Shown: positions 43,182 through 63,068, numbered from the stretch's first letter. The stretch is 64,000 bases of DNA from Nitrosopumilaceae archaeon (GCA_965214835.1 CBDCCK010000002.1:2816001-2880000), one strand, 5' to 3'. Program-made: numbers and translations. The notes: a model not told the origin generated them from the letters alone.

Positions 43182-44066
43182 ATGACCAAATCGTGCAGGC
43201 GGCATTTTGCCATTACCGACTCTGACAGGGGGGAGACAATTTGTAACTTCTGCGGCGTGGTTCTGACTGAAAAGCTAGTTGACAGATGCCACGAGAATAA
43301 TTACTTTGAGGAGTTCTCTACAAAGAACAATGCCAGGACAGGGCCTGCCACATGCCTGTCGATGTATGACAAGGGTCTTTATACCGTAATTGGAAGCAAC
43401 ACTGACTCGTCCGGCCACCTCCTTTCAGGCAAGACAAAGTCCAGCTTTGAGCGTCTGCGAGTCTGGGACAGGCGCAGCAAGTCCGTTTCGTTGGGGCGTA
43501 ACTTCGGCACCGCGTTTGTCCAGCTTGACGCCATCAAGGCCAAGCTTGGCATTCCTGACAGCGTCATGGAGGAGACCGCATACCTGTATCGCAAGGTTGT
43601 AGCCAGGCGGCTGCTTCGTGGCAGGCCGATCGCCCATGTAATGGCAGCCTGCTTGTATGCCTCCTGCAGGGCCACCAACACCCCTCGGAGCATAGACGAT
43701 ATTGCAAGAACCGCCAACATCAGGAGGACATCTGTATCCAGAACCCTCCGGCTGCTGCTTTGCGGGCTGAACATGAGGCTGGAACAGTACGACATCCGGG
43801 ACTTTGCCGTAAGGCTGGCAAACAACCTGGGCCTAGGCGAGAAGACCAAAAGGCGCGCGCTGGAAATTCTGGCCGACTCTAAACGGCAGGGCATGCCTGC
43901 AGGCAAAAACCCCGTGGGGTTTGCCGCGGCCTCCGTATACCTTGCATGCCTGGAATGCGGGGAGGAGGTATCCCAGACGCTGGTCTCTGGCCGGTCCGGG
44001 ATTTCCTGCGTGACGATTCGCAACACGGCTGCCCAGATAAGAAAAAGGATCACTCTTCGGCTCTGA
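43182..44066 (+). CDS. tfb: Transcription initiation factor IIB paralogue
   Basis: Zn ribbon 'GETICNFCGVV', 'ARTG', 'RGRPI..MAACLY.SCR...PRS', 'GKNPVGFAAASVY', 'VTIRN'. Confidence 0.9.
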   Translation: MTKSCRRHFAITDSDRGETICNFCGVVLTEKLVDRCHENNYFEEFSTKNNARTGPATCLSMYDKGLYTVIGSNTDSSGHLLSGKTKSSFERLRVWDRRSKSVSLGRNFGTAFVQLDAIKAKLGIPDSVMEETAYLYRKVVARRLLRGRPIAHVMAACLYASCRATNTPRSIDDIARTANIRRTSVSRTLRLLLCGLNMRLEQYDIRDFAVRLANNLGLGEKTKRRALEILADSKRQGMPAGKNPVGFAAASVYLACLECGEEVSQTLVSGRSGISCVTIRNTAAQIRKRITLRL

Positions 44067-45441
44067 TCACCTCTTTTTTGACCCACGTAGTTTGAGATTT
44101 ATGATCCAGCAGCTCTACATTCAGAGACGCAATCTCGTCCCTGATCCTGTCTGCCTCCTCGTACCGCCCTGACCGTCTTAGCTCCTCCCTTTTTACAATC
44201 ATCCCGTTTATGGATCTTACCTCCTCGTCTGAGATTTCTGGAATGGACAGGCCTAGCACCTCCATGTACCTCTCGATCTCCGGCCTTGCAGCCTCGCTGA
44301 CGCTCTTTGTCAGCTGCTCGCCTGCGGCCAGCCTGTTGATTTCCCTGACCAGCCTGAAAAATGCCGACAATGCCTCGTGCGTGTTAAAGTCGTTTTCCAG
44401 GCATCTGTCAAACTCAAGGCCGCATCCCCTTATGATCTCCTGAATCTCCTTGGTGCCCCCTCCGCCTCGTGCATGAACCAGCTCAAAATACGCCGTCTCT
44501 GTCTGCCTCCACTTGACCAGGCTTTCCCTGAGCAGCCCCTCAGAATAGTCAATCGGCTTTGAATAATGTCCCGACAGGCAAAACAGCCTGATGACATTTG
44601 GGCCCCAGTCCCCCAAGAGCCGTCCTACGGACTTTACGTTTCCAAGCGACTTTGACATCTTCTCGCCGTTGACTGTGACCATCCCAACATGCATCCAGGA
44701 TTTTGCAAGCTGCCCGCCTGCATGCGCCTCGGACTGTGCAATCTCGTTTTCATGGTGCGGGAAGATCAGATCCCTTCCACCGCCGTGGATGTCAAAGCCG
44801 CCTCCAAGGTACCTGAGGCTCATGGCCGAGCACTCTATGTGCCATCCGGGCCTGCCTGCGCCCCACGGACTGTCCCATCTTGGCTCCGTATCTGCTAGCT
44901 TCCACAGTGCAAAGTCCAAGGGATCCCTTTTGTCCTCGTCAATTACCACCCTTGCGCCTGACTGCAGCTCGCCGATCCTCTTTTTGGACAGCTTGCCGTA
45001 TTGGGGAAACTCTGACACTGCAAAATATACGCCATTCTTGCTTACATAGGCGGCCTTTTTCCTGATCAAGTCCTCGATGAATCGGATCATGTCTGGGATG
45101 TGTTCTGTGGCCCTCGGATATGCAGTGGCCCTCTTGACGTTGAGCCCGTCAAAATCGCGATGGTAGCCTTTGATGTATTTCTCGCTGATTCCTGCTGCTG
45201 TCTTCCCCTCCACCTGTGCGCGGCTGATGATTTTGTCGTCGATGTCCGTAAAGTTCTGTACCATCTCGACTCTGTGACCCCTGCCCTCCAGATGCCTGCG
45301 CAGGACGTCAAAGACGACAATGGTCCTTGCGTGTCCTATGTGCGAGTCATCATAGACGGTGACCCCACAGAGGTAAATCCCGACCCTGTCCCCAAGCTGC
45401 AGCTCCTTTTCCTGTGCCGATAACGTGTCTGCTATCCTCAT
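44050..45441 (-). CDS. cysS: Cysteine--tRNA ligase
   Basis: 'CGVTVYD.SHIGH', 'GRPGWHIEC', 'FPHHENE', 'KMSKS'. Confidence 0.96.
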   Translation of the reverse strand: MRIADTLSAQEKELQLGDRVGIYLCGVTVYDDSHIGHARTIVVFDVLRRHLEGRGHRVEMVQNFTDIDDKIISRAQVEGKTAAGISEKYIKGYHRDFDGLNVKRATAYPRATEHIPDMIRFIEDLIRKKAAYVSKNGVYFAVSEFPQYGKLSKKRIGELQSGARVVIDEDKRDPLDFALWKLADTEPRWDSPWGAGRPGWHIECSAMSLRYLGGGFDIHGGGRDLIFPHHENEIAQSEAHAGGQLAKSWMHVGMVTVNGEKMSKSLGNVKSVGRLLGDWGPNVIRLFCLSGHYSKPIDYSEGLLRESLVKWRQTETAYFELVHARGGGGTKEIQEIIRGCGLEFDRCLENDFNTHEALSAFFRLVREINRLAAGEQLTKSVSEAARPEIERYMEVLGLSIPEISDEEVRSINGMIVKREELRRSGRYEEADRIRDEIASLNVELLDHKSQTTWVKKEVIRAEE

Positions 45442-45442
45442 T

Positions 45443-46234
45443 TTATATCTCCGGGGCCCCTGGCACTGGCTCCCTTTTGTGCCTGCTGTCCTGATTCATC
45501 TGGCGGATTCTGTTGATTTTTCCCCTTGCGATTCCAGTCTCCTTCTCGGTTTGCTCAACTGACAGCCTCCTGTCTATCAGGCAATGAAGGATTGGGTCTG
45601 TCTCCTCATATGTCAGGCCAATCTCCACCTCTGCGTCGTGGCCCTTCCACAGGTTGGGACTGCTTTTCTTTTTGATGATTTCCTGCGGAACCCCTAGGTA
45701 TTCTGCTAGCCTTCTTACCTGAGTCTTGTACAGTGAGGCGATTGGCATTGCATCTGAGGCGCCGTCCCCATATTTTGTAAAGTATCCTATCAAAAGCTCG
45801 CTTCTGTCGCTGGATCCCAACACGAGATAGTTTCTGATGTTGGCATAGTAATAAAGAACACTTGTGCGGATCCTTGCCCTGAGGTTTCCGGCACCCATCT
45901 GGTTTGGCTCCAGCACCTTTGTAAACTCTCTTACTATCAGGTTGATGTCCAGCAGCTTGTAATCCAGGCCTAGGCTGCCTGCCAGGCCCAGGGCGTCACG
46001 GGTCTCCTCGCTGGGAGATACCTTCGAGTCCGGCAGAATCATGGCAAGCGAGTTTTTTGGAAAGCATCTTTTTGCCAGCACCGCGGTGACCGCCGAGTCA
46101 ACCCCGCCGCTCAGGCCCAGCACCACTCCATCCTTTTTGGCCTGCCATACCCGCTCCCTGATAAAGTCCTCTATGGTCCTGGCTGCCCCGGCATAGTCTT
46201 TGGCGGTCATGCGATCCAGAATCTCTTGGCTCAC
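45443..46234 (-). CDS. nadE: NH3-dependent NAD+ synthetase
   Basis: 'LSGGVDS', 'NLRARIR', 'GYFTKYGDG'. Confidence 0.94.
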   Translation of the reverse strand: MSQEILDRMTAKDYAGAARTIEDFIRERVWQAKKDGVVLGLSGGVDSAVTAVLAKRCFPKNSLAMILPDSKVSPSEETRDALGLAGSLGLDYKLLDINLIVREFTKVLEPNQMGAGNLRARIRTSVLYYYANIRNYLVLGSSDRSELLIGYFTKYGDGASDAMPIASLYKTQVRRLAEYLGVPQEIIKKKSSPNLWKGHDAEVEIGLTYEETDPILHCLIDRRLSVEQTEKETGIARGKINRIRQMNQDSRHKREPVPGAPEI

Positions 46235-46794: not shown

Positions 46795-49157
46795 GTACGA
46801 GGTCACCTAGTTTTGACGTGTTTTGACAACCTGTTTAACATATTGCGATCATGCTGATCAAATACGATGCCTGTATAGCATCAACATCATGAAAGGCCGT
46901 CGACCCACATACCGCGAACTAGAGGCCACAATTGTATCATTCACAGACAGAATAAGCACGCTAGAAAATAACCAAAAGGCAATGTGCAGGATGATAAAGG
47001 AGAAGGACAGGACAATCGAGGAGCAGAGCAGGATGATGAAGGAGAAGGACAGGACAATCGAGGAGCAGAGCAGGATGATGAAGGAGAAGGACAGGACAAT
47101 CGAGGAGCAGAGCAGGCGGCTCCGTATGAGTTTACCCCTTCACCTACTTGGTGAATTCTTCCTGACCACCCGATCTATAAGATAGCATTACCTAGAAAAA
47201 CGCATGTCATCCGGCTCGGAGGTCAAGATACTGCGCGACGAGATAGCCCGCCTCATAGCGGAGATTGGCAAGATGAAAAGGGAGTTTGCCACAAGAAACG
47301 GGGAGCTGGCCACACAGCTGGCCGAGGCCATGGCACGAATCGCGATGCTGGAGGCAGAAAACCTGCAGCTCAGACAGCACATCAAATATTACGAAAACCC
47401 GCACACCCCCTCCTCGCAGAACTCGATTCCGACCAGGCAGAAAAAGGCCGCCGCCGCAAAGGCATCAGGCGGCGTGCCCGCACCTGCAAAGGCAAAACCG
47501 GGCCGCAAATCGGAACACGAGGGGGTATCACACAAGAGAAAGCCGACCGAGTTTGTAAAGCACTGCCCCAAAAAGTGCGGCAAGTGCGGCGGCACCAACA
47601 TGAAAAAGCCCGAAAAGATGTTCTCCAAGCTTGTGACCGAGACCCCTAGGAGGCCCGAGCCGGTCACGACACAGCACACCGCATACAGGCGCAAATGCGC
47701 CGACTGCGGCCACGAGTCCGTCGAGGACGACAGGTCATGGAACGTGCCGGGAACAGAATTTGGACCAAACATCACGGGGATGATGACTGCAATACACGTG
47801 GCACCTGCCTCCATACAGGCCACGGCCACGCTGTGCTCTGAGATCCTGGGCATGGACGTCTCAGAGGCAGGCGTGCTGCAGTGCCTGAGGGCCGGCGCCA
47901 ATGCGATAAAGCCCGGCGTAGAGAGCATCAAGCAGGCCATCAGGGATTCTGATTATCTGCATATTGACGAGACTGCCATGCCATACAACGGCAGGACGGC
48001 CCGCATATGGGTGGTCGTGGGAAGAAAAGGTGACGGCACCGTCACCGGGATCCACACGCTGGCCGCACCCAGCAGGGGCAGGGCCGTAGTTGACATGAAC
48101 TTTCCATATTATGACAAACCGGTCACAGTCGACGGGTACGGCGTATACGCCGCATTCAAGATCAGGCAGTGGTGCCGGATCCGCATACTCCGGGAGGCCA
48201 GGGAGGCCGGCAAGGTTTCCCGGCAGGCCCACGCGCTGTATGTGGCCCTCAAGAAAAAGTTTATCCATGCCAAGGGGCTGGGGCCGCCGGAGGGCGCCGC
48301 CCAGCACGACATGCTGGTGGCAGAAACGCGCGGGCTGGCCGAGGCATTCGGCAGGGAGGCCGGATGCGAGAGCTTTGCCACAAAGCTTGGGAACGCCTCG
48401 GAATACCTGTACACGTTCGTGCTATACCCGGGCATGGAGCCCACCAACAACCTGGCCGAGCGCATGCTGAGGCCGTCCGTAATTGCACGCAAGATATTCC
48501 AGGGACTCCGTACCATGGAAGGCATGGAGATGTTCACCGTACTGATGACATGCGCGATGAACTGGCGCGCCCGGGGATGCGGCGTGAGGGAGATGGTCGT
48601 CAAGACCCTGACTGGCAGCGTCGCCTGAGGGGTAAACTCTTACGGCGGCTCCGGTACTACGAGAACGAGAACTCGCCACCGTCTGCAGAATCACTAGAGT
48701 ACAAGAGGCAAAAGGCGCAGCGGAAAAGGGAGAGGGCCAGTAACCGTGGCAACGGCAGCAGTAGTGGCACCGGCAAAAAGCCGGGAGGCCAGAGGGGCCA
48801 CAAGGGGACATCCAGAAGACACGACCCCCAGAAGACGGTGCTTCACACGTTCCAGGACAACGACGGGACGTGCTCGCCGGTGTGCATGTGCGGGAGGGCC
48901 ATGGACATAACTGCCCTGATACGGGACATCATCGACTTTGAACCGGTTCGGATGACAGAGACGAGGCACATAACCGAGCGTGCTACATGCAGACTGTGCG
49001 GCATTACGATATCAGCAGACGACGGACTCCCAAGGAGGGGCAGGTACGGCAAGCACATGATCTCCCTTGTGTCTGCCTTGCGCGCAAGGCACATGCCGCT
49101 GCAGTCCGTGGCAGACACACTCAAGGATTTTACCGGCAGGAGCATCGCCAAATCGAC
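46795..49157 (+). mobile_element. IS66-D, interrupted by IS66-A copy 2 and truncated by IS66-E
   Basis: TIR at 46795; reading resumes 'RRLRYYENENSPPS' after 48643; 42-bp repeat x3 at ~46998-47113. Confidence 0.85.
47124..48643 (+). mobile_element. IS66-A-type copy 2 with transposase 47204-48628
   Basis: TIRs GTATGAGTTTACCCCT / AGGGGTAAACTCTTAC; 9-bp TSD GGCGGCTCC; CWAH motif altered to CRIR. Confidence 0.92.
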
Positions 49158-50792
49158 GTATGAGGTCACCTACCCCTCACAATAGGGTAAACATTACTGA
49201 CGGTGCTGATCCTTATACTATGATCGCGTAGACTAGGCATTGTGAAAGGTCAGCCCTCCGCATGCTGCGAGATCGAGGCATCTACAGCATCGCCCACGGA
49301 GACGATAAGGAATCTAAAAAAGGATCTCAAGGAGCGCGACAATATCATTGAGGAGCAGGGCAGGACCATTGAAAAGCTAAACAAGACACTTGAAAAGCGC
49401 GACAAGACCATCAGGGAGCAGGACAACCGGCTCCGATACTACGAGAACAAGAACTCGCCCCCGTCAGCAGACTCGCTGGAGTGGAAGAGGCAAAAGGCAC
49501 AGAGGAGAAAGGAGAGGGCTAGGTCCGATGCTGCAGCCGGGGATGACGGCACCGGGGAGGACAGAAAAAAGCCCGGCGGCCAGAAGGGCCACAATGGCGT
49601 ATCGCGCACCCACCGGCCCACCAGGGTACAGAAACACTGCTTTCCGGGTGGACGGGCGCCGGAGTGCAAGTGCGGCACCACCACAGAGATCATGAAAAAG
49701 CCGCAGGTGCGCGACATGATAGGATTCAAGATAAAGTACACCGAGACGCGCCACGAGACACAGAGGGCAGTGTGCCCGAAATGCGGCACCATGCATACTG
49801 CCCCCGACGGCCTGCCCCGACGCGGCAGCTATGACACGAGCGTGGTCACAGCCGTCACAAAGCTGCGCAGCGAGGGCGTCCCACACAACAGGATCCCGGG
49901 TATAATGTCAGATATCCTGGGCGTGCACATGTCAAAGTCAACTGCAATCAACAGCATAGGACGCGTCTGCGACGCCGCAAAGGCGCCTGCCGAGGCCATC
50001 GCAGAGGAGGTAAGAAGCTCAAAGACGGTCTGCATAGACGAGACGGGGATCAACCTGGCAGGCAGACTGGGATGGGCGTGGGCCATGCTGTCGGCGGTGG
50101 GCGTGTTCATGATATATGCAGACACCAGGAGCGCCCGGATCCTGGACCAGTACATGGGCGGGTACGGGGGCGCCGTCACATCGGACGGATATCCCGCATA
50201 CAAGAGGTTCGGGCTGCTGGGAAGGCTCCAGCGGTGCTGGGCGCACGAGCTGCGGTTCCTCCTGTATGGCTCGCAGAAAAAGGGTGCCCTGCTGTTTGCA
50301 GGAGTCCTGTACCGGCAGATGCAGCAGCTGTTCAAGGATGCTAGGGAGTGTCTTGAGGGCTGGGACAAGCTGTCCGGGGAGGATCTCCGGGAGCTCGAGG
50401 AGAGGACGGGGATAAGCAGTGCCGGCGGGCTGATGGGGCGGCACTCGCCGGAGCTGCGCCGGCGGTTTGAGACCAACATGCAGAACATGCTGTTCGGATA
50501 CGTTGATGCATGGGGCGGCCCGCTGGAGCCCCTTCTCAAGAGGATGCACAGGGCCCTGCCGTGCATGTTTGCGTTTCTGGAATACGAGGGTGTCGAGCCG
50601 ACCAACAATGGTGCAGAGCGGGCGCTGCGCCCCGTCGTGCTTCAATTCAAGATAAGCGGCCAGATCAAGGGCGGCCTGGTCTGGACGGAAAGGCATGGAT
50701 GGCTCAATACATGCGTGTCGACATGGAAGCTGCAGGGCAAGTCCATCATGGATGAGGTGGCCAAAATAATCTAGGGGTAGGTGACCACATAC
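49158..50792 (+). mobile_element. IS66-E with intact transposase 49242-50774; probable partner of MITE A
   Basis: TIR GTATG(A/T)GGTCACCTACCCCT; 'IDETG', 'SDGY', 'QRCWAH', 'PTNNGAERALR'; no TSD. Confidence 0.9.
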
Positions 50793-50825: not shown

Positions 50826-51100
50826 ATGAAAAAGGCAGCGCTTACAGAGCGGCAGATAAAATACGCTACAAGGCAGCGAGAGAAGGGCAGGACGCTGAAG
50901 GCAATAGTAAGGGAGCTGGAGGTGACGCCCCGGTACGTGGGCAGGCTGCGCCGAGTCCGAAAGGACCGGCACGGTGCACGTGCAAAGGAGTCCCGCCAAG
51001 CCCGCATCGCCGCCGCCCTTAAGCGACAAGGTAGAGGCGGTGCTTCGACTGCACGCCGGGCAGGACATCGGCGCGGTGCGCACGACCAGCGCGAGCCCCT
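50826..51100 (+). pseudogene. HTH fragment, probably an IS481-like transposase N-terminus
   Basis: 'KGRTLKAIVRELEVTPRYVGRL'. Confidence 0.45.
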
Positions 51101-51404
51101 CCCTGCACAGGATCCCATCGGGAGAGACGCCGGCTGCAAGCTGCTTTAGCTGGGGCGGCACCTCCGCATGCGCGGTGGCAATGGCAGCTGTTGCCAGAAC
51201 GAGAGAGTCCTGCCGCGGCAAGGCGTCTGATCATGGCATGCCTACAGGCATGTTTCCAAAAAGATTGTCGCCGCGTACGAGGCCGCCTTCCCCTCAGATA
51301 GTTAAGCGCGGGTTGCATGCAACGGTGATTTGCACGCCCGGCAGTGGTGGAATGCGGCCTCGTACGCTTGAGCCATCCTGCAAAGGCTCCGGCCAGGCAC
51401 CAAG

Positions 51405-52532
51405 CTACGCATACAGCTCCTTCATCAAGTAGACATGCTCTGGGGTTGCACCGTTTAGAATATTTTTGTTAAAGGGAACAGAATCAGGCATAGAATTGCG
51501 GCAGGATTCAGCCTCAGAGGCCGGATCTGAGATGTTGTTGTTTTCCATGTCGTTGATTTTCGATATTATCCCGTGCATGGATGCAGAGGACGCATCAGCA
51601 GAACGTGTGCCATCAAAAATTCCCCCGACATGCTGGATCAGGATTTTGATTAACAAGATGTCAGAAACGTGTCTGGTCTTCTTATAACTTGCATCCTTTG
51701 AGATATAGGTTCCCTGGAAATCAGAATGCCGCTTTGCCTGTGCTGCGGTAATGCTCACAGCGGAAGTCAGATCCAGAAAGCCATCCACCGAACAGGAGAT
51801 GTTTTGAACTATGTCATCGACGGCATACTTTGGAGAATGAAAGTGCGCAGTCTTAAAACCAGTGAGTCTTGGAAAGATATCAACTGCTTCCCGTATGTCA
51901 TGCTTGTCGGACAGTCGCATTAGCGCAGCAATGTCGTAGATTTGCTTGGCAATCTCCGTCTGTCGGGTGGGCTTCAGTCCGATTGTGCCCAGTGCCAGGG
52001 TGGTAATCTTGTCAGCCAAAAGAGCGCCCTTGGAGAGAATGTTCATCTCCGCAGTTGTGGAAAAGCCAAAAACGGTGGTGCCTAGAGGCACCGTCCTTGT
52101 GGACAGCGGCAAGCCAGACTCGCAGAGAAAGTCAACCTTGACGGATCCTCTGCCGCCCAGGCACGAGTCATAGGATACCTTGTAGGTGATCAGGTTGTCA
52201 AGAGGGTAGGGATTTGACGGATGGTACTCCTTACATGCAAGCTCATCCATGGCATCAATGCCGACCATTGCATCTCGGACATCATCAAGCGTGCCGGGGG
52301 TCATCAGATCGATGTCGATGCTCAGCCGCTTGGCGGCATCTGGCAAATGAAACGGCATGCACATGCCTCCCCTGACTATGCAGCCAAGACTGCCTGAAAC
52401 ATGGCGATACACCTCAAAGTCCATCATGAATTTTTCAACGGAAGATCTATCAACAAAGCCATACCGGACCGCGACTGCACCAACGTTTTCAGCTGTCAGA
52501 TATCGGGATAATGATAGTGGCAAGTCACTCAC
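51405..52532 (-). CDS. AbiEii/AbiGii-like nucleotidyltransferase toxin
   Basis: 'RGGMCM....RLSIDIDL' (GG...RxSxDxD), 'LLADKITTL', 'KQIYDI'. Confidence 0.85.
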   Translation of the reverse strand: MSDLPLSLSRYLTAENVGAVAVRYGFVDRSSVEKFMMDFEVYRHVSGSLGCIVRGGMCMPFHLPDAAKRLSIDIDLMTPGTLDDVRDAMVGIDAMDELACKEYHPSNPYPLDNLITYKVSYDSCLGGRGSVKVDFLCESGLPLSTRTVPLGTTVFGFSTTAEMNILSKGALLADKITTLALGTIGLKPTRQTEIAKQIYDIAALMRLSDKHDIREAVDIFPRLTGFKTAHFHSPKYAVDDIVQNISCSVDGFLDLTSAVSITAAQAKRHSDFQGTYISKDASYKKTRHVSDILLIKILIQHVGGIFDGTRSADASSASMHGIISKINDMENNNISDPASEAESCRNSMPDSVPFNKNILNGATPEHVYLMKELYA

Positions 52533-54414
52533 TTTGCAGGTACATTTCGACAGAATCTATAATCTTCCTGTGGCGAGCCAGCGAGCGCAGTCTGTCCGAG
52601 TCAAGCAGTCTGCAATCAAGCAGCTCGTCCATGATAGATATCAGCTCATCCTTGTACAGTGTGAGCCTGTTTTTGACGACCTCCACATAAAGATCCAGCC
52701 AGGCCTTTTCAGGGATGGCCCAGGTGGAGGACAGCCTTGCAGCGTATTCACGGATTAGGATCACCTTACTGTGGGGGGAGACCCTTAGCAGCGCCTGAAG
52801 CTCGTGTGGCTTTGGATCCAGCAGGACGGCGAATCCCTTGGCGTATTCAGATACGACCTCCGACAGGGACTGCCCGGATCCATTGGTGGTCTGAATGTTG
52901 TAGACTATTTTGCTGTACGAGTTTTGCAAGAATGGAAAAAGGGTGCTCAAGCCGGTGAACTGAAAGCCATGGGCAAAGCTTTCCTTCAGGTGATCATGCA
53001 GTGGCATGAGCTCGCCGTTCAGGGAGTAGTTTGTGAGGTGGTACAGATTTTGCCCGCGGCGTGACTGCAGGATGCCTGCGGCAGGCATAGAATTCGTTAT
53101 GAACTCGGCCCACCGCCTGTTTCGCGTCATGACAAAATCCGGATCCCTAGCCGACATGAGCAGTCTTGCCTCAATCCCTATCAATCCAAGAAGAGTCAGG
53201 GGGTTCTTGAATGCGCCAAATGCGGGGCTGCCTCTGTTGATTTTTACAGTCACCTCGTTTTCCCGGGCTGTCAAGCCATAGATCTCAGATCCAGAGTCCT
53301 CGAACTCAAAATTCAGCCGTGAGCTGCCCTCGCTTATGCTAAAGGATTCGGCCTTTCGAAGGAGCATCTTTGCATTTGCTGCACTGATGCGGGTATTGAG
53401 GGCCGGGGTGCTATTTTTGCCGGCACCTGACAGTACGGACCGGATTTCCGAGGGGCTGACCTGCCTGGAGGCGGCGCTGCGCAGTGCCTTGATCACGGCA
53501 GGGTCGTTTTTGAACCCGGAAACGGCCTCCCTGTATTCAAGGGAGTCCTCCAGGAATCCGGTCTTGTGAAAGTTGACAGGAACGTGATCAAGTGACAGCT
53601 CCCCTGCAATCTTTGCGACCTCGGGATGATGCCTGATGCCGAATTTAGCATAGGCCTTGATCAGCCTGCCCTTGCGGTACAGGTGGATCCCGTAATCTCC
53701 CTTGATCGAGCGCCTTTCTAGCAGTCCGACCCAGCCGGAAATGGCATGGCCGCTGGGAAGACTGACTGTGACTTCTTGCTTTGTATCATCCTTCAGTTCA
53801 GGGGCAGCATGAATGCAGTCGCGCGAGTTTATGCGTATCCTGACTTGGTTGCTCTTCAGATAGGGCCCGTATCTGATGCCAAACCGCTTTTTAAAACCAG
53901 AGATTTGGTTTGGGTACAGTGGAATCTTTAGCTTGCAGATTACAATTGTTGTGCCGTGCCAGGTGCCGGTCTTTTCCTCCTCGATCTCAAAGTTTGTCCA
54001 GCCCTTTGAGGAATCATCCAGCCACCGATCCTCGTCGTACCTGGCAGTGAATTGGGATTCAGAGCCGGGAGTGGCAGTCGTTATGGTAAAGGATTTTCCA
54101 AGGTGGGAGCAGGCGCTTTTCATGCCCAGGCCAAACCGTCCCAGCTTTTCACCCTCTGCCTTGGTTTCCCTTGCAATGGTAAGCGCATCCCCTAGTCCGT
54201 CCAGTTCCATCCCATGGCCGTTATCAGAGACGGTGATTTGTTTTTGATCAAAGTCAAGGTCTATGTCGATTTTTTCAACCCCACCTGCAAGCCTGGCATC
54301 TATCGAGTTGTCGACTAGCTCCGCTATGGCCTGCTCGGTCCGATATCCTGTCATCCCCAGTTTTTTAATCAGGCTCTTATCAGGGGCTATGTCGACTCTG
54401 GTCTTTTTTGTCAT
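52525..54414 (-). CDS. MORC/GHKL ATPase fused to an AbiEi-like antitoxin C-terminal domain; likely ATG at 54414
   Basis: 'AIAELVDNSIDA', 'SDNGHGM', 'GRFGLGMK', 'HGTTI', S5-like 'GIHLYRKGRLI'; C-terminal 'FTGLSTL...IPEKAWLDL...RLRSLARHR'. Confidence 0.8.
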   Translation of the reverse strand: MTKKTRVDIAPDKSLIKKLGMTGYRTEQAIAELVDNSIDARLAGGVEKIDIDLDFDQKQITVSDNGHGMELDGLGDALTIARETKAEGEKLGRFGLGMKSACSHLGKSFTITTATPGSESQFTARYDEDRWLDDSSKGWTNFEIEEEKTGTWHGTTIVICKLKIPLYPNQISGFKKRFGIRYGPYLKSNQVRIRINSRDCIHAAPELKDDTKQEVTVSLPSGHAISGWVGLLERRSIKGDYGIHLYRKGRLIKAYAKFGIRHHPEVAKIAGELSLDHVPVNFHKTGFLEDSLEYREAVSGFKNDPAVIKALRSAASRQVSPSEIRSVLSGAGKNSTPALNTRISAANAKMLLRKAESFSISEGSSRLNFEFEDSGSEIYGLTARENEVTVKINRGSPAFGAFKNPLTLLGLIGIEARLLMSARDPDFVMTRNRRWAEFITNSMPAAGILQSRRGQNLYHLTNYSLNGELMPLHDHLKESFAHGFQFTGLSTLFPFLQNSYSKIVYNIQTTNGSGQSLSEVVSEYAKGFAVLLDPKPHELQALLRVSPHSKVILIREYAARLSSTWAIPEKAWLDLYVEVVKNRLTLYKDELISIMDELLDCRLLDSDRLRSLARHRKIIDSVEMYLQSE

Positions 54415-54427
54415 TATATGATTCAAG

Positions 54428-54517
54428 ATTTGCGAATTTTATATATTTTCGCAAATTTTACTCGTAAGATTATAAAATTCAATTGGGTTTTATATGCGAA
54501 AATACCCATTATTCGCA
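54428..54517. promoter_or_regulatory. Two TGCGAA-N11-TTCGCA palindromes; the first encloses the TATA box of the GHKL-AbiE operon
   Basis: 54431-54453 and 54495-54517; spacer 1 reads AATATATAAAA on the minus strand, 23-33 bp upstream of the ATG. Confidence 0.7.
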
Positions 54518-54829
54518 AAAGCAAATTGCGAAGACAGCCTCAAAACCATAGAAAATGCGGCCAATTGCCCATCGGGGGCGTAGCAACAAGCGAATCCTCT
54601 GGCGCTACGGGGAGCCGGCCTGATTTCCATCACATCGTGTCGGCTCCCAAAGGTCAGCCCTGCAAAACAGTTAAGCATCTAGAGCCCAGGATACGCGCAA
54701 GGCACGAGCGTGGAGTGGACCCCATAAAATAGGGTAATACGTAGTCATTTGGCCGAGCAAAAAACAGATAATACGACCAGCATTCGTGCAAGTCGTGCCT
54801 AGCACAGATCCAATAAAACTGGCCAACAG

Positions 54830-55446
54830 CATGTCAAAAAGTAGGGTCTATTTTCGACACGCCAGATGGAATGGAAGGAGGACATGTCCCAAATGCGAGT
54901 GCAGGGGGGGTCTATCGCACAGGAGATCGATTCCGGTGTAAAAGATGCTGGTATAGGTTCGACGAGTTTACTGGCACATACTTGGCAAGGATCAGGCTTC
55001 CACCCAACACGGTAATCCTTTTGCTGTATCTGTTTTCGGTAGGAGTTCCGGCATACAGGTTGCGATTTAGCATAAACGTCAGTCTTAGGTCCATAGAACA
55101 TGCGTTCATGGTGTTTCGCGATGCCATATACGAGGCCGCAATCAGAGAGATGAAAATGCTGTCTGGAGACATAGAATTTGATGAGGCGATGTTCGGGGGA
55201 CATCGTAAAGGAAAGCGTGGCTGGGGTGCCGAAGGCAAGACGATCGTATTTGGAATATATGCGAGAAGCGGACAGGTAATGACGTTTCCAGTACCTGACC
55301 GAAAACGCACCACTCTCCGGCCGCTGATCGAAAAGCACACCGAGGCAGGTTCGCTATACTATACAGACGAGCATACTGCATATGCGTTTCTCTCCACCAG
55401 GGGAATGCACAAGACGGTAACCCACAGCAACGACGAGTTTGTACGT
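54830..55446 (+). pseudogene. IS1595-family (ISXO2-like) transposase truncated by ISH3
   Basis: 'IEFDEAMFGG...GKRGWGAEGKTIVFG', 'YTDEHTAY', 'VTHS'. Confidence 0.82.
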
Positions 55447-56978
55447 CAGTAGTTCCTCGATGTACTTTTGCAGGCACGATAATTACGCAATTTGCCGAGA
55501 TTTTTTGACCATCATACTATAGATCAGGCGGTGTGCCAACCATCATCATGTCAGTAACACAAAACGACGTGTTTGCACACCAGTTTGACATAACATCGAG
55601 ACAGTTTAAAACATTGCGACGGCGGTTTCCCAAGCTCGGGCTGGCCGTCTCAAAGAGTCGCAACGCAGTGTATGACCACATCGACGCACTGCGCGTTCTA
55701 TATTTCATGTCTGAGAGGAGGATGTTTGCAGAATCTGCCGTGACGCACCTTCGCAGGCGGGCCTCAAAATGCAGCAGGCAGCAGCATGACGACGGGGCTG
55801 CCTCCAAGGGCGGCGCGTATAGTTGCCGTACGCCTAGTCCGGACTGGATCCTAAAGGCGATCCGGGGCGTCAGCCTGGATGATGCGCAAAAGTGGTGCAG
55901 CTCCATGCTGCAGCATACGGTAAGGTGCGCCCGCAGGTCAGGCATGCTGCACAACACGGACGTCGTGGCAGTGGACGTTACCGACGTGGAATACTATGGC
56001 AAGGGCCTGGAGGATATCGCCAGAAAGTCAAAGCCCAAGAACGGCACGTCGACGTTTCTCTCGCACATTACCATGCACGGAATAGGATCAGATGACGGGT
56101 CTGACCTCGTGCTTTCCTCGCTGCAGCTTCCAAAAGAGGCAAAACTGGCCGATTTCGTGCCTAAAATGATCCGCAAGGCGTCCAGATCAGGGATGAGGAT
56201 CAAGACGTTCCTGTATGACCGCGGGTTCTTTAACGTGGACTGCATGAGGGCTGCAGAAACAAGCACGGGCAGCTACATCATGCCTGCCGTCAAGAACAGG
56301 AGGATAGTGGCGGCAATAGAGGAGCATGACCGCGGAGAACGCGGTGCGGTATCAAAATATACAATGACCAACAAGGACGGCAAGAGCGCCACATTCAGGC
56401 TAGTCATTGTGGAAAAGGACGAGGTAGAAAAGGACGGCACGGCAGCAGCAAAGAAGGACAAGGCAGAAGAGACCATAGCCGACAGGTACCAGGGTCTTTG
56501 CCACCAACATGTCTGCTAAAAGTGCAGAGGCAGTCATTGAGCAGATACCGGAGGAGTACCGCAGTCGGTGGGGAATCGAGACCGGGTTCAGGGTGATCAA
56601 GGGGATAATGGGCAAGACGTGCAGCAATTCCCCGGTCGTCAGGCTGCTGCTGTTCTATATGTCTGTCATACTGTACAACCTGTGGAGGACTGCCGTGTTC
56701 ATAGACGTGGAATCCAAGTGGGACGGATTTGCAGGAGGGAAGGGGTTTACCATGATGCTGTTTGTCGCGTGCATTGTCGATGCGGCCGACTCGTTTGTAA
56801 ACGATCGCGGAAAGTAGCGGCGGTGCCGTGCCCGGTCTGCAAAGGCACACCTAGGAAGTAACCATATGTGAAGACATCGAAAGTGCAGTGATCAGGTGGT
56901 ACCTCCACTGATACGCCAAAGCCCAGGAAGGCGTCAGGGAAGGCAAACAAACTCATTACCCATCGACGTAGTAAGGGC

Positions 56979-59911: not shown

Positions 59912-60490
59912 GTGGAATCACCCTATGCCGGACTGGATGAGACAGAATGGGCGAACAAGACAGGCGAACTGATCAGCAGGCATCCGCTGAGGCCAGAAGA
60001 AATCACGGGAATAGTAACTAACTGCTGGGACTGCATACTGAACACGGTCATAGGGGACTACAAGATAGGCACGGACATCTTTCCTAGGCCGCAAATCATG
60101 GGGTTTTTTCTGCACGAGCTGATCTGCTTGGAAATATCAAAGCTTGACCCTGAAACATGGGGATGCGAGAAAAAACCAAGCGACAAGGACATTGTCAACC
60201 TAAAAGACGACACGTATTCCATAGAGGTCAAGACATCGTCCCACAAATCAAAAATTTTTGGAAACCGGAGTTACGCGCAAGATACCACAAAACCCAGAAA
60301 GTCGAAATCCGGCTACTATCTGACAATAAACTTTGAAAAATTCAAATCCGGCAGGACAAGGCCGAAGATTACAAAGGTCAGATTTGGCTGGCTGGATCAT
60401 GAGGACTGGGCCGGCCAGAAATCACAGTCGGGACAGCAGGCCCGCCTGCCGCCAAACGTTGAAAAGTCAAAACTGCTGGAGATCCTGTGA
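59912..60490 (+). CDS. ScaI-family type II restriction endonuclease
   Basis: 'SPY.GL...HPL', 'FPRPQIMGFFLHEL', 'KD.....SIEVKTSS', 'GNRSYAQ', 'RFGWLDH.DW' (family recalled from motifs). Confidence 0.75.
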   Translation: MESPYAGLDETEWANKTGELISRHPLRPEEITGIVTNCWDCILNTVIGDYKIGTDIFPRPQIMGFFLHELICLEISKLDPETWGCEKKPSDKDIVNLKDDTYSIEVKTSSHKSKIFGNRSYAQDTTKPRKSKSGYYLTINFEKFKSGRTRPKITKVRFGWLDHEDWAGQKSQSGQQARLPPNVEKSKLLEIL

Positions 60491-61315
60491 CTGCCGCCGT
60501 ATCCTGTCTATTGCAATGTCCAAATAATCCTCGTTTGTGTCACACCCCACGACCTGTCGGTTGTTCATGATTCCTGCTATGGCAACGCTGCCTGATCCCA
60601 TGAATGGATCAAATATCAGATCATGCTCGTTGCTTGATGATTTCACTATCCTGTCCAGTATTGCCAGCGGAAACTGGGCGGGGTGGTCCACTCTTTCCCT
60701 GGATGCCCTGTTCCTTCCAGACGTCACTTTTGGTATCTCCCAGACGTTGGTGGGGTTTTTCCCCAAAGGATTGCATTTTAATCTTCCATTCTTCTTCTGG
60801 TTGGGGTACTTTACGTCGGGATCCCTTATGGAATCCAGGTTGAACGTGTACCGGTCCCGGTTTTTTACATACCACAGGTACTTTTCATTTCTCGGGGAAA
60901 AGTATCTCTTTGTCGCCACTCCGGCCTTGTAGTACCACACGATTTCCTGCATGAAATAGAAATCCGTCTTGTCCCACAGCAGATAGTTTATGGGAACGGC
61001 CTTGCCTATGTCCTGCAGTTCAAAGTACCCCAGGTTGAGCCAAAAGGCGCCATTGCGATCTGTCATTTCAAAAACCTGATTCAGCCATTTCCTGCACCAC
61101 TTTAGGTAGTCCTTTGGGTCCTGCACCCTTTCATACTCCTTGCCTATGTTGTATGGCGGCGAGGTTATTGTCAGGTTCATCAGGGGTGATTTTACTTTAT
61201 CCATGAATTCCACGCAGTCAATATTGTACAGCAGTACGCGGTCATCAGAGTAATAGGGGTCGCCAATCTCCTGCCTTATTGAATCCAGTTTTGACATCTG
61301 TTTCAGGTTGCTCAT
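60467..61315 (-). CDS. Beta-class N4-cytosine/N6-adenine DNA methyltransferase
   Basis: 'TSPPY', 'HPAQFP', 'DPFMGSGS'; convergent with and overlapping the REase. Confidence 0.92.
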   Translation of the reverse strand: MSNLKQMSKLDSIRQEIGDPYYSDDRVLLYNIDCVEFMDKVKSPLMNLTITSPPYNIGKEYERVQDPKDYLKWCRKWLNQVFEMTDRNGAFWLNLGYFELQDIGKAVPINYLLWDKTDFYFMQEIVWYYKAGVATKRYFSPRNEKYLWYVKNRDRYTFNLDSIRDPDVKYPNQKKNGRLKCNPLGKNPTNVWEIPKVTSGRNRASRERVDHPAQFPLAILDRIVKSSSNEHDLIFDPFMGSGSVAIAGIMNNRQVVGCDTNEDYLDIAIDRIRRQSQDLQQF

Positions 61316-61562
61316 CGCTCATCGCTCCGTTTCTTCACTGTGATTTTTCACCACGGGCTTTCGCGCGTCTTTCATGAAACTGTTACCATGCGACTCTACT
61401 TATATTTTCAGCTAGGTGCCGGAGATGGAAATGTGATCCGGGTGGCGGCAGACTCGCCGGATCACATGATCAACTTTGACGGGGAGAGGTTTCTCGGGCC
61501 GTAACATGCGGCATACGGACTGCGGCGTGATGCCGGTCATCCCCGGTCTCCGGCCGGCAAGT

Positions 61563-62979
61563 CAGTAGTTCCTCGATGTACTTTTGCAGGCACGATAATT
61601 ACGCAATTTGCCGAGATTTTTTGACCATCATACTATAGATCAGGCGGTGTGCCAACCATCATCATGATACCAACACAAAACGACGTGTTTGCACACCAGT
61701 TTGACATAACATCGAGACAGTTTAAAACATTGCGACGGCGGTTTCCCAAGCTCGGGCTGGCCGTCTCAAAGAGTCGCAACGCAGTGTATGACCACATCGA
61801 CGCACTGCGCGTTCTATATTTCATGTCTGAGAGGAGGATGTTTGCAGAATCTGCCGTGACGCACCTTCGCAGGCGGGCCTCAAAATGCAGCAGGCAGCAG
61901 CATGACGACGGGGCTGCCTCCAAGGGCGGCGCGTATAGTTGCCGTACGCCTAGTCCGGACTGGATCCTAAAGGCGATCCGGGGCGTCAGCCTGGATGATG
62001 CGCAAAAGTGGTGCAGCTCCATGCTGCAGCATACGGTAAGGTGCGCCCGCAGGTCAGGCATGCTGCACAACACGGACGTCGTGGCAGTGGACGTTACCGA
62101 CGTGGAATACTATGGCAAGGGCCTGGAGGATATCGCCAGAAAGTCAAAGCCCAAGAACGGCACGTCGACGTTTCTCTCGCACATTACCATGCACGGAATA
62201 GGATCAGATGACGGGTCTGACCTCGTGCTTTCCTCGCTGCAGCTTCCAAAAGAGGCAAAACTGGCCGATTTCGTGCCTAAAATGATCCGCAAGGCGTCCA
62301 GATCAGGGATGAGGATCAAGACGTTCCTGTATGACCGCGGGTTCTTTAACGTGGACTGCATGAGGGCTGCAGAAACAAGCACGGGCAGCTACATCATGCC
62401 TGCCGTCAAGAACAGGAGGATAGTGGCGGCAATAGAGGAGCATGACCGCGGAGAACGCGGTGCGGTATCAAAATATACAATGACCAACAAGGACGGCAAG
62501 AGCGCCACATTCAGGCTAGTCATTGTGGAAAAGGACGAGGTAGAAAAGGACGGCACGGCAGCAGCAAAGAAGGACAAGGCAGAAGAGACCATAGCCGACA
62601 GGTACCAGGGTCTTTGCCACCAACATGTCTGCTAAAAGTGCAGAGGCAGTCATTGAGCAGATACCGGAGGAGTACCGCAGTCGGTGGGGAATCGAGACCG
62701 GGTTCAGGGTGATCAAGGGAATAATGGGCAAGACGTGCAGCAATTCCCCGGTCGTCAGGCTGCTGCTGTTCTATATGTCTGTCATACTGTACAACCTGTG
62801 GAGGACTGCCGTGTTCATAGACGTGGAGTCCAAGTGGGACGGATTTGCAGGAGGGAAGGGGTTTACCATGATGCTGTTTGTCGCGTGCATTGTCGATGCG
62901 GCCGACTCGTTTGTAAACGATCGCGGAAAGTAGCGGAGGTGCCGTGTCGGGTCTGCAAAAGTACATCTAGGAAGTACTG
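61563..62979 (+). mobile_element. ISH3-family element copy 2 with both TIRs intact and the same internal frameshift as copy 1
   Basis: CAGTAGTTCCTCGATGTACTTTTGCAG / CTGCAAAAGTACATCTAGGAAGTACTG; ORFs 61649-62635 and 62625-62933. Confidence 0.9.
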
Positions 62980-62985
62980 ATGTGC

Positions 62986-63068
62986 AGTTTGTGCCAAAGT
63001 CCAGTCTCCAGACCGATCAAATAGACTCGTGCCTGAAATCAGGAGTTGCTTCGAGTCCGAGCTGCTGC
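62986..63068. mobile_element. Partial MITE B, reverse orientation
   Basis: CTCGTGCCTGAAATCAGGAG...CCGAGCTGCTGC; similar to 39330-39415. Confidence 0.65.

Follow-up and report, generated by a model that had tools for sequence, protein, structure and literature searches.

An AbiE-family cassette of an ammonia-oxidising archaeon with a predicted antitoxin domain joined to a MORC-like ATPase

The window, the whole 64,000-nucleotide stretch of DNA analysed here, contains two minus-strand open reading frames that make up one archaeal cassette (Table 1). The first-pass annotation had described two genes overlapping by 8 bp, and the overlap is indeed present: gene 1 ends in ...CAA AGT GAG TGA, and gene 2 opens in the other frame with GTG AGT GAC. 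The frame of gene 1 is open from TTG 54426 (52525..54426, 633 aa), and its ATG start matches a database record (P0003, 629 aa, 100% identity). Homologs align from residues 1-12 of gene 2, which supports its GTG start. The pairing of the two genes is far above chance, because it is seen again in dozens of other genomes. In current gene calls gene 1 is labelled only 'ATP-binding protein' and gene 2 starts 35 codons too late; automated tools therefore probably report an orphan AbiEii.

Table 1. Features of the cassette and its surroundings, numbered from the first letter of the window.
Feature	Position	Strand	Basis or remark
Gene 2, AbiEii/MenT-type (DUF1814) nucleotidyltransferase, predicted	51405..52532	-	375 aa from GTG
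Putative toxin catalytic motifs I-II, G55 G56 ... R69-x-S71-x-D73-x-D75	52308..52370	-	invariant in 38/38 aligned sequences
8-bp overlap GTGAGTGA, gene 2 start and gene 1 stop	52525..52532	-	sequence
Gene 1, GHKL-S5-middle domain-AbiEi C-terminal domain fusion, predicted	52525..54414	-	ORF, 629 aa from ATG 54414
AbiEi-type C-terminal antitoxin domain (DUF6577-like), predicted	52528..53034	-	~residues 465-633, hhalign and VIA-align
Middle alpha/beta domain, zincin-like fold, predicted	53074..53466	-	~residues 321-451, AF2 model
S5-like transducer domain, putative	53527..53868	-	~residues 187-300, weak Morc6_S5 score
GHKL (Bergerat-fold) ATPase domain	53932..54369	-	~residues 20-165 (P0001 numbering), four motifs
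Palindrome TTGCGAA-N11-TTCGCAA around TATA-like AATATATAAAA	54430..54454	.	16-40 nt upstream of ATG
Distal inverted repeat TTCGCAA-N7-TTGCGAA	54512..54532	.	sequence
ScaI-type endonuclease	59912-60490		E 1.4e-72
N4/N6 methylase	60467-61315		E 1.8e-54

The N-terminal part of gene 1 matches the Pfam family HATPase_c_3 (E 4.8e-22, residues 28-131), as do all 37 relatives examined. The four GHKL motifs claimed for it can be read directly, using what we take to be the definitions of the Bergerat motifs: E36-x3-N40-x2-D43, D68-x-G70-x-G72, G96-x2-G99-x-G101 and G158-T159, in columns at least 90% conserved among the 37 relatives. When the family profile was compared with solved structures, the best matches were MORC4, MORC3 and MORC2 (E 3e-16 to 7e-10), with MORC4 and MORC3 covered in two stretches. 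Judged by sequence, the head of gene 1 appears to be a GHKL ATPase whose nearest relatives are the MORCs. For the S5-like domain proposed to follow it, Morc6_S5 is found at E<=0.01 in 29 of the 37 full-length relatives, and in one of them (P0035) the score of 26.6 bits exceeds the cut-off of 26.2, but the window protein itself stays below that value (E 1.3e-3, 19.2 bits). The nearest PADLOC and NCBIfam models, MzaB of MZA and TmtA of Tiamat, have only this GHKL head in common with gene 1 and are unrelated to it elsewhere; the match to the PADLOC MzaB model (E 8.1e-11) spans residues 19-147, and the NCBIfam MzaB model gives 50 bits against a cut-off of 850, over 130 of 480 profile positions. 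The impression that the fusion is not a named system agrees with PADLOC-DB v2, in which the GHKL head is the only part of gene 1 to be matched.

The C-terminal domain of gene 1 contains the stretches FQFTGLSTL and PEKAWLDLY, and in alignments with AbiEi-type proteins 'PEKAWLDL' falls opposite their ERAxVDLYFE block. Compared by hhalign with wHTH(AbiEi_4)-DUF6577 proteins from other archaea of the same phylum, the domain gives a probability of 99.8% (E 5.2e-30, 166 columns), and phmmer also reaches stand-alone DUF6577/AbiEi_4 proteins, with E down to 7.5e-14. The fold comparison points the same way. For the C-terminal half, an AF2 model (pLDDT 82.6) was compared with 48,161 chains by VIA-align, and the best match to the C-terminal domain was AbiEi (6y8q_A, residues 57-195; Z 9.5, rmsd 2.8 over 122 aligned residues), the second-best match having a Z of 6.1. 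Foldseek, given this 334-residue model, returned nothing from the PDB at E<=0.001, so that AbiEi was found by the exhaustive VIA-align comparison only. Pfam DUF6577 (PF20217, gathering cut-off 27.8 bits) is likewise absent from the window protein at E<=1, and is present at E<=0.01 in 18 of the 37 relatives (30.4 bits in P0004); the link to AbiEi therefore rests on profile-profile and fold comparison. By hhalign, the window protein is a divergent relative. Sequence profile and predicted fold together place the C-terminus of gene 1 among the AbiEi-type antitoxin domains, as the motif 'PEKAWLDL' had first suggested.

The wHTH-DUF6577 proteins are about 275 aa long and, unlike gene 1, have a winged helix of the canonical kind (PF13338, at up to E 6e-8). 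Their genes lie directly upstream of AbiEii at four of seven loci (L009, L010, L011 and L016), one of the others being at a contig edge (L007) and two without AbiEii (L008 and L017); the partner toxins, of 345-392 aa, resemble gene 2 in length. By their sequence, these proteins appear to be ordinary AbiEi-type antitoxins with a C-terminal domain homologous to that of gene 1. No HTH family is found among the Pfam matches of gene 1 at E<=1, and the N-terminal winged helix of AbiEi-type proteins is absent. The earlier suggestion that the winged helix has been replaced by an ATPase thus holds for the comparison with these stand-alone relatives, where it gives way to a putative GHKL-S5 module.

The middle domain yields borderline VIA-align scores against SPRTN (6mdx, Z 7.0), YbeY (Z 5.7) and selecase (Z 5.5). 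It lacks HExxH; the sequence at that place is IGIEARL, in which Glu419 is invariant. An active metalloprotease was ruled out, since HExxH is missing from all aligned members. Residues 300-345, considered as a hidden HTH, are modelled as three short helices with pLDDT 58-70 and match no family.

Gene 2 matches AbiEii (DUF1814, COG2253) in both Pfam (E 1.8e-10, 41.6 bits against a cut-off of 22.5) and PADLOC (1.2e-15), in agreement with the nucleotidyltransferase motif that had been noticed in it. At the sequence level it is distant from solved structures: its sequence finds no PDB chain at E<=1 and its profile none at E<=10, similarity to the MenT toxins being too low for such a match. Its AF2 model (pLDDT 92.7) finds MenT3/TglT as the best Foldseek match (E 1.3e-6, probability 1.00), followed by MenT4 and MenT1. 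Besides motifs I-II, all 38 aligned toxin sequences keep D174-K175 (motif III) and K196-Q-x-Y-D200 unchanged. PMC3985639 defines motifs I-II of DUF1814 as hG[GS]...R-x-x-x-D-h-D within a pol-beta fold. The corresponding AbiEii residues are G49, G50, R63, T65, D67 and D69 (PMC3985639; preprint 10.64898/2026.01.19.700257). Gene 2 keeps the AbiEii spacing of motifs I-II, with S71 at the place of the phospho-acceptor T65, and differs in motif IV, where the +DxxD pentad of AbiEii is replaced by a variant, K196-Q-I-Y-D200, that retains the last Asp. Motifs and predicted fold indicate that gene 2 encodes an intact AbiEii/MenT-type enzyme.

The layout of the cassette resembles that of AbiE from Streptococcus agalactiae and Lactococcus lactis, which is also bicistronic, with the antitoxin gene first, an overlapping gene for a DUF1814 toxin with the shared G-G...R-x-[ST]-x-D-x-D spacing, and promoter inverted repeats, IR1 and IR2 (PMC3985639). 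It differs from AbiE in having an archaeal host, and in that the repeat-binding N-terminal winged helix of AbiEi (COG5340) has as its counterpart about 460 residues of GHKL, S5-like and zincin-like sequence. The MenAT pairs of Mycobacterium tuberculosis (MenA1-MenT1, MenA3-MenT3) are comparable in toxin fold and in a likely control point at an active-site Ser/Thr (PMC11375011); the MenA antitoxins, unlike gene 1, are small and have no ATPase.

The palindrome at 54430-54454, upstream of gene 1, is operator-like and putatively an operator; it occurs only once in the 3.2-Mb genome. Relatives show this geometry with either identical or other arms. It forms a perfect inverted repeat at 6 of 18 loci, the arms varying by clade. 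A scan for sigma-70 promoters and terminators was set aside as not meaningful for an archaeal host. A palindromic operator implies a sequence-specific DNA binder, yet gene 1 shows no detected HTH family, and none has come to light in gene 2. One alternative reading is that of selfishness or addiction and nothing more: a toxin-antitoxin module in which GHKL-S5 takes over from the winged helix as a dimerising DNA clamp autoregulating the operon at the palindrome, with no role in virus defence. We regard this as unlikely, if well short of negligible: the restriction of the palindrome to this one promoter speaks for it, but an ATP-hydrolysing clamp would be a costly stand-in for a 60-residue winged helix, and no MORC-type ATPase is known to read sequence.

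The genomic distribution of the cassette is patchy and multi-copy. Of 401 genomes from one archaeal family 37 carry the toxin, in 9 of 27 genera, and a search with the gene 1 protein gave 434 clusters (90% identity) at E<=0.001, which makes the fusion family abundant enough for study. A sample of the phylum contained it in 9 of 401 genomes, all of one family, and the pair was also found in one bacterial (Dehalococcoidia) MAG. A single-protein search for related loci recovered three genome loci and a metagenome scan two; no relatives were present among the 143 pattern matches of a viral-contig scan. The conservation of the pair elsewhere, proposed as a check on the first reading, was confirmed from the toxin side, where 27 of 30 loci were informative and every one of the 27 had the fusion ORF immediately in front of the toxin. 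Of these toxins 24 are intact and three broken, and no intact toxin was seen that lacked an open fusion frame. From the side of gene 1, 18 loci comprised ten with an intact AbiEii directly downstream, four with truncated remnants, three with none and one at a contig end. The fusion is accordingly retained with a broken or missing toxin at seven loci, and the order of decay is that the toxin goes before the fusion gene.

At three of the 18 loci the fusion gene has no detectable toxin, and it may therefore have a toxin-independent role. GHL ATPases such as MutL and Topo VI-B act on DNA. Together, the solitary ATPase gene and this kinship lend something to a reading that we consider highly improbable, namely that there is no toxin-antitoxin pair and that the ATPase and the nucleotidyltransferase share a task in nucleic-acid repair or modification, with the AbiEi-like domain as an adaptor. 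A patchy presence confined to one family in the phylum sample argues against such a task, as do the multiple copies, the repeated truncation of the toxin, the variable insertion sites and the fact that proven toxins are what gene 2 most closely resembles in structure. In favour of addiction, the cassette is inserted singly amid housekeeping genes, at sites that differ in related genomes, is multi-copy and often decayed, and both of its copies in the genome of the window lie in IS-rich regions. AbiE stabilised a plasmid (PMC3985639), and S. agalactiae AbiE gave E. coli no protection against 32 coliphages (preprint 10.64898/2026.01.19.700257). Nevertheless, defence-type genes adjoin some loci, and addiction is itself compatible with conditional activation.

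The restriction-modification (R-M) pair reported 5.5 kb from the cassette does exist in the window (Table 1). It lies inside a composite-transposon-like unit of its own, and IS copies stand between it and the cassette. The proposed link of the cassette to R-M is not conserved, as at 11 related loci, scanned over +/-7 kb, none of the 119 ORFs nearby matched an R-M family in Pfam. The neighbours at these 11 loci are mostly housekeeping genes; defence-type neighbours were found only at L006 (PD-T4-4_A/AriA-like), L041 (PDC-S01), L044 (dGTPase-like) and in the window (R-M), and the defence context of the cassette is inconsistent. Prokaryotic MORC and paraMORC proteins have a GHKL and S5 module, as gene 1 putatively does, and a sporadic, laterally mobile distribution like that of the cassette, and the paraMORC-HEPN (Ymh) fusions are a precedent for GHKL-S5 joined to a domain of a conflict system (PMC2292703, PMC3710099). 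In contrast to their R-M contexts, the module is here partnered with an antitoxin domain and linked to a nucleotidyltransferase, with no conserved R-M neighbour.

Among the papers listed by a literature search there was no published description of a GHKL/MORC ATPase fused to an AbiEi domain and accompanied by AbiEii, and no paper contained 'DUF6577'; the few that name an AbiE component together with MORC or HATPase do so incidentally, judged by title and abstract. The main text of the 2008 MORC paper gives no nucleotidyltransferase or toxin context; its supplement and those of PMC3985639 and PMC3632139 may list such architectures. Among searchable papers and PADLOC models, the cassette is thus a conserved AbiE-family variant without earlier description. 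The 'type IV' label first attached to AbiE is dated, since the preprint 10.64898/2026.01.19.700257 reclassifies AbiE as type VII, with antitoxin-induced auto-phosphorylation of the toxin.

The first-pass annotation had interpreted the cassette as a candidate defence system in which an ATP-gated clamp may sense foreign DNA or R-M inhibition and release the toxin. Its architecture, the intact gene 2, the conserved pair and the lack of any PADLOC model extending past the head all stand, and the R-M link is not conserved. We judge it fairly probable that the cassette is a toxin-antitoxin or abortive-infection module of the AbiE/MenAT kind whose antitoxin bears an ATPase switch. The two genes of such a module would be co-translated; that gene 2 is toxic, that gene 1 neutralises it, that a phospho-switch is at work, and that the ATPase has a part in this or the whole acts against viruses are inferences. 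By homology, gene 2 would add nucleotides to tRNA 3' ends and so block translation. By analogy with the solved AbiEi:AbiEii and MenA:MenT pairs, the AbiEi-type domain of gene 1 would serve as the antitoxin by docking on the toxin, and docking would make the toxin phosphorylate itself at Ser71 in its active site and so shut down. The GHKL-S5 module and the degenerate zincin-like domain may form an ATP-driven dimerising switch, which would make antitoxin activity, operator occupancy or both depend on a signal.

Structure prediction for a complex of the two proteins gave a weak result, 0.47 (the median of 0.49, 0.02 and 0.47), against 0.00 for the best control. Of 80 solved complexes 58 pass the mark used, as do 2 of 110 mismatched pairs; passes with a score of 0.60 or less make up only 7 of the 80 but include both mismatches. 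The runs, made with custom alignments, agree in at least 0% of contacts, with partner pLDDT of at least 85; like complexes are already solved, and the pass may therefore reflect memory.

The invariance of S71 bears on how the toxin would be silenced. DUF1814 toxins are switched off by phosphorylation at the S71-equivalent residue (PMC11375011; preprint 10.64898/2026.01.19.700257), and GHKL-fold serine kinases, CapK and VapK, control other toxin-antitoxin or immune operons (PMC13373217). The GHKL head might accordingly be a protein kinase that phosphorylates Ser71 of the docked toxin, as a true kinase antitoxin (type VII). This strikes us as quite improbable, because the head is a MORC/MutL-type domain, not a SpoIIAB/RsbW-type one, and has a putative S5 transducer and a conserved HKTGF block that includes a Lys, and because the studied toxins phosphorylate themselves and AbiEi binds no nucleotide (preprint 10.64898/2026.01.19.700257). 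VapKSC and CapK-CapS remain parallels to the favoured ATPase-switch module in that a domain of the GHKL superfamily governs toxin release; they differ from it in using SpoIIAB-type kinases, STAS-domain partners, separate proteins and a PIN toxin (PMC13373217). The toxin-antitoxin module with an ATPase switch can be taken one step further, to a form that we hold as tentative and on the whole doubtful: the MORC-like ATPase would be a sensor that dimerises, driven by ATP, when it meets foreign or damaged DNA, a drop in nucleotide charge or some other trigger. Dimerisation would pull the AbiEi domain away from the toxin, the operator or both, and so free a tRNA-modifying nucleotidyltransferase.

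AbiE/MenAT is a large and actively studied toxin-antitoxin family, whose antitoxins known until now are small proteins that bind DNA. A conserved lineage with its neutralising domain tethered to a MORC-like ATPase would offer a natural experiment on whether nucleotide hydrolysis can gate an antitoxin. The cassette joins a putative translation-targeting toxin to the MORC/GHKL module, which has been met in restriction-modification contexts and in the genome defence of eukaryotes. Ammonia-oxidising archaea are important in the nitrogen cycle, and we know of few characterised defence or addiction modules in them, their antiviral repertoire being, as far as we are aware, almost unexplored. If the sensor proposal were true, a MORC-type clamp would for the first time be seen coupled to a toxin-antitoxin switch, and ammonia-oxidising archaea would gain a candidate abortive-infection system.

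The cassette comprises two minus-strand genes: gene 1, which encodes a GHKL-S5 ATPase head fused to an AbiEi-like C-terminal domain, and gene 2, which encodes an AbiEii-type nucleotidyltransferase. We confirmed the 8-bp overlap reported in the first-pass annotation: the stop of gene 1 and the GTG start of gene 2 have the bases GTGAGTGA in common. The public call for gene 2 is a protein of 340 aa that starts at M36, 35 codons downstream of the GTG. Because alignments with homologs begin at residues 1-12 and include a conserved YGF..VEKF block, the overlapping GTG is the better start; the database call drops this N-terminal block and conceals the overlap. The window is of archaeal origin: it contains a TFIIB gene, and its relatives in the database carry the names Nitrosopumilaceae/Nitrososphaerota.

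Features of the cassette and its surroundings in the window
Feature	Coordinates	Strand	Remarks
Giant ORF	2-5161		>1700 aa, runs off window start
Giant ORF	18122-26491		2789 aa
TFIIB gene	43182-44066
Five tandem 21-nt units	46986-47116		within a 120-aa ORF (46823-47185), immediately ahead of the first IS66-type transposase
Weaker copies of the 21-nt unit	47268 and 49318-49385		ahead of the second IS66-type transposase
Two IS66-type transposases	47204-50774
152-aa ORF	50974-51432	plus	convergent with gene 2, overlapping its last 28 nt; no Pfam or PADLOC match
Gene 2 ORF	51405..52532	minus	directly after gene 1; GTG start
Gene 1 ORF	52525..54426	minus	ATG at 54414 gives 629 aa, same length as database record
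Proximal inverted repeat TTGCGAA-AATATATAAAA-TTCGCAA	54430-54454		straddles TATA-like box, 16-40 nt before gene 1 ATG
Distal inverted repeat	54512-54532
IS1595 fragment	54871
IS-like element, two 1.43-kb copies	55445-56870 and 61561-62986		99-100% identical
Terminal inverted repeats of the IS-like copies	55440-55479 and 62947-62986
IS110 transposase	57031

Both Pfam and PADLOC assign gene 2 to the AbiEii family, and the nucleotidyltransferase motif noticed at first pass is present. Invariant across 38 aligned sequences are G55, G56, R69, S71, D73, D75 and K132, together with D174, K175, K196, Q197, Y199 and D200. The structure model (pLDDT 92.7) retrieves MenT3/TglT, MenT4, JHP933 and MenT1 as its top Foldseek matches. 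The spacing of G-G...R-x-S-x-D-x-D equals that of G49, G50, R63, T65, D67 and D69 in AbiEii (PMC3985639). According to a preprint (10.64898/2026.01.19.700257), AbiEi switches AbiEii off via the phospho-acceptor T65, and PMC11375011 describes the same logic of control for MenT1 T39 and MenT3 S78. The gene 2 enzyme therefore looks active, and is predicted to be regulatable in the way of the known toxins.

The key claim for gene 1, that its C-terminus is AbiEi-like, is supported by four independent lines. The Pfam domain DUF6577 is present at residues ~470-632 in several gene 1 relatives. Stand-alone DUF6577 proteins of other archaea are ~275 aa long with an AbiEi_4 winged helix at the N-terminus, and of 7 such loci inspected, 4 have an AbiEii gene directly after the DUF6577 gene. 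A phmmer search with residues 300-633 against 1.8 billion representatives recovered 60 proteins, which include fusions of 620-670 aa and proteins of 230-280 aa; among the latter, 14 of 15 scanned are DUF6577 proteins, and 6 of those also match AbiEi_4 (E≤0.01). Finally, profile-profile comparison of the fusion group with the stand-alone group gave a probability of 99.8% (E 5.2e-30, 166 columns) and aligned PEKAWLDLY of gene 1 with ERAxVDLYFE. Foldseek found no match for the AlphaFold model of residues 300-633 (pLDDT 82.6). An exhaustive structural scan of 48,161 chains ranked the C-terminal domain of Streptococcus agalactiae AbiEi (6y8q_A) best, with Z 9.5 and rmsd 2.8 over 122 aligned residues, the runner-up on this domain reaching Z 6.1.

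At the other end of the protein, HATPase_c_3 matches with E 4.8e-22 (Pfam). The four Bergerat motifs of the proposed GHKL fold are all legible and are at least 90% conserved across 37 relatives. For the S5-like domain, Morc6_S5 stays below threshold in gene 1 itself (19.2 bits; cut-off 26.2) and matches 29 of the 37 full-length relatives at E≤0.01, the same set giving HATPase_c_3 in 37/37 and DUF6577 in 18/37. The best solved relatives of the family profile are MORC4, MORC3 and MORC2 (E 3e-16 to 7e-10), with Topo VI-B, HtpG and PMS1 ranking behind. An alpha/beta domain separates the S5 domain from the AbiEi-like one and is zincin-like at borderline scores (SPRTN, Z 7.0; YbeY, Z 5.7). The alignment of relatives contains no HExxH in this domain and one invariant Glu; the domain is probably degenerate and non-catalytic.

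A search with gene 1 recovered a full-length fusion ORF at 18 loci. Their sources are the genome of the window itself, same-family relatives, one Dehalococcoidia and one thaumarchaeal MAG, and two metagenome contigs. Downstream of the fusion we found an intact AbiEii gene in 10 loci, truncated remnants in 4, no toxin gene in 3 and the contig end in 1. As a guard against ascertainment bias, a second search was seeded with the toxin, which is present in 37/401 genomes of the family and in 9 of its 27 genera. Of 30 loci fetched, 3 were uninformative owing to contig ends or an insertion. The pairing proved to be conserved: in all 27 informative loci a fusion ORF, open over the ~490 codons visible, lies directly upstream of the toxin (24 intact, 3 broken). 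Five of these loci were already in the first set. In neither search did an intact toxin turn up without the fusion gene, whereas the fusion gene often persists after loss of the toxin. Such toxin-first loss is what one would expect if gene 1 is the antitoxin and gene 2 its toxin; in a rival reading, the two are enzymes that cooperate without any toxicity.

Gene 1 occurs in 9/401 genomes sampled across the phylum, all from one family. In an Atlas cluster with 111 members, 55% are archaeal, the phylum being known for only 33. The viral contigs searched contained no relative. At one locus beyond the 18 (G359:C1:1777948-1778409 region), deletion has left remnants of the two genes: the first ~160 residues of a fusion gene at 66% identity and, within 130 bp, a toxin piece matching the last ~40 residues only. 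The window's own genome holds a second cassette copy, 43% identical (L002/L044, G000:C2:504506-508739), in which a ~1.4-kb insertion with a DDE_Tnp_1 transposase divides the toxin gene into pieces matching toxin residues 16-160 and 169-311; its neighbourhood includes an IS66 transposase, a Fic/DOC gene and a gene of HD/dGTPase-like type. A 31-residue remnant 0.8 kb beyond the window end (G000:C2:2880773-2880865), which matches the C-terminal end of gene 1 at 77% identity, is probably the relic of a third copy.

The cassette sits in an IS-rich stretch. Two 1.43-kb IS-like copies, each with a 328-aa ORF that has no Pfam or PADLOC match, flank the IS110 transposase, two unknown ORFs and a ScaI-type restriction-modification pair; the pair thus seems to be carried by a unit resembling a composite transposon. 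The link between cassette and restriction-modification drawn in the first-pass annotation is not conserved: none of the 119 ORFs within 7 kb on either side of 11 related loci is a restriction-modification gene. These neighbours are mostly housekeeping genes (cobalamin and purine synthesis, tRNA synthetases), vary between genomes, and are of defence type at few loci only, so the cassette behaves as a self-contained mobile unit. One fusion gene copy (L030/L043, G036:C1:427704-445536) lacks AbiEii and is followed by a 465-aa ORF with no Pfam or PADLOC match. It adjoins genes for Cys-tRNA synthetase and NAD synthase, and since the same two genes border the window island at 44050-46234, this site may be a recurrent insertion region.

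The combination of the two halves is absent from PADLOC-DB v2, from the searchable literature and from the main texts of MORC, HEPN, AbiE and archaeal-defence surveys, whose supplements, outside the search, might list it. PADLOC and NCBIfam matches in gene 1 are limited to the generic ATPase head, and gene 1 scores 50 bits against the cut-off of 850 for MzaB. Both halves of the cassette come from known families.

The word TTCGCAAW occurs four times in the 64-kb window, always in the 104 bp upstream of gene 1, and the four copies are arranged as two inverted repeats; a site like the proximal repeat is found nowhere else in the 3.2-Mb genome. Perfect inverted repeats (arms ≥6 nt, spacer 11-12 nt) occupy the same position in 6 of the 18 loci; the arms are those of the window in L019 and L031, TCTAGAA in L032 and TGTAAA in L020 and L022, and several other loci have imperfect versions. 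Each repeat alone is only modestly unlikely, with the same arm length in 1 to 23 of 300 mononucleotide shuffles. They resemble the pair of inverted repeats through which abiE regulates itself (PMC3985639). The abiE repeats are read by the winged helix of AbiEi, which gene 1 lacks. In a competing account, the cassette is a purely selfish module, and the ATPase does no more than stand in for the DNA-binding head.

We lean towards an AbiE-type toxin-antitoxin core for the cassette, and give much less credence to GHKL-S5 as an ATP-driven switch. Co-folding of the C-terminal half of gene 1 with the toxin, using custom alignments and with like complexes already solved, gave weak support at 0.47 (median of 0.49, 0.02 and 0.47; best control 0.00). 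The mark was reached by 58/80 solved complexes against 2/110 mismatched pairs, but with scores at or below 0.60 by only 7 of the 80 and by both passing mismatches. Contacts shared between runs amount to at least 0%, and both partners have pLDDT of 85 or more. In the toxin-antitoxin reading, the C-terminal domain would dock on the nucleotidyltransferase and induce auto-phosphorylation of Ser71, neutralising the toxin. Alternatively, the GHKL domain could itself be the kinase that phosphorylates Ser71, as VapK and CapK, two GHKL kinases, offer a precedent (PMC13373217). Under the favoured toxin-antitoxin reading, the GHKL-S5 module may serve as an ATP-driven switch that controls neutralisation, occupancy of the promoter, or the two together.
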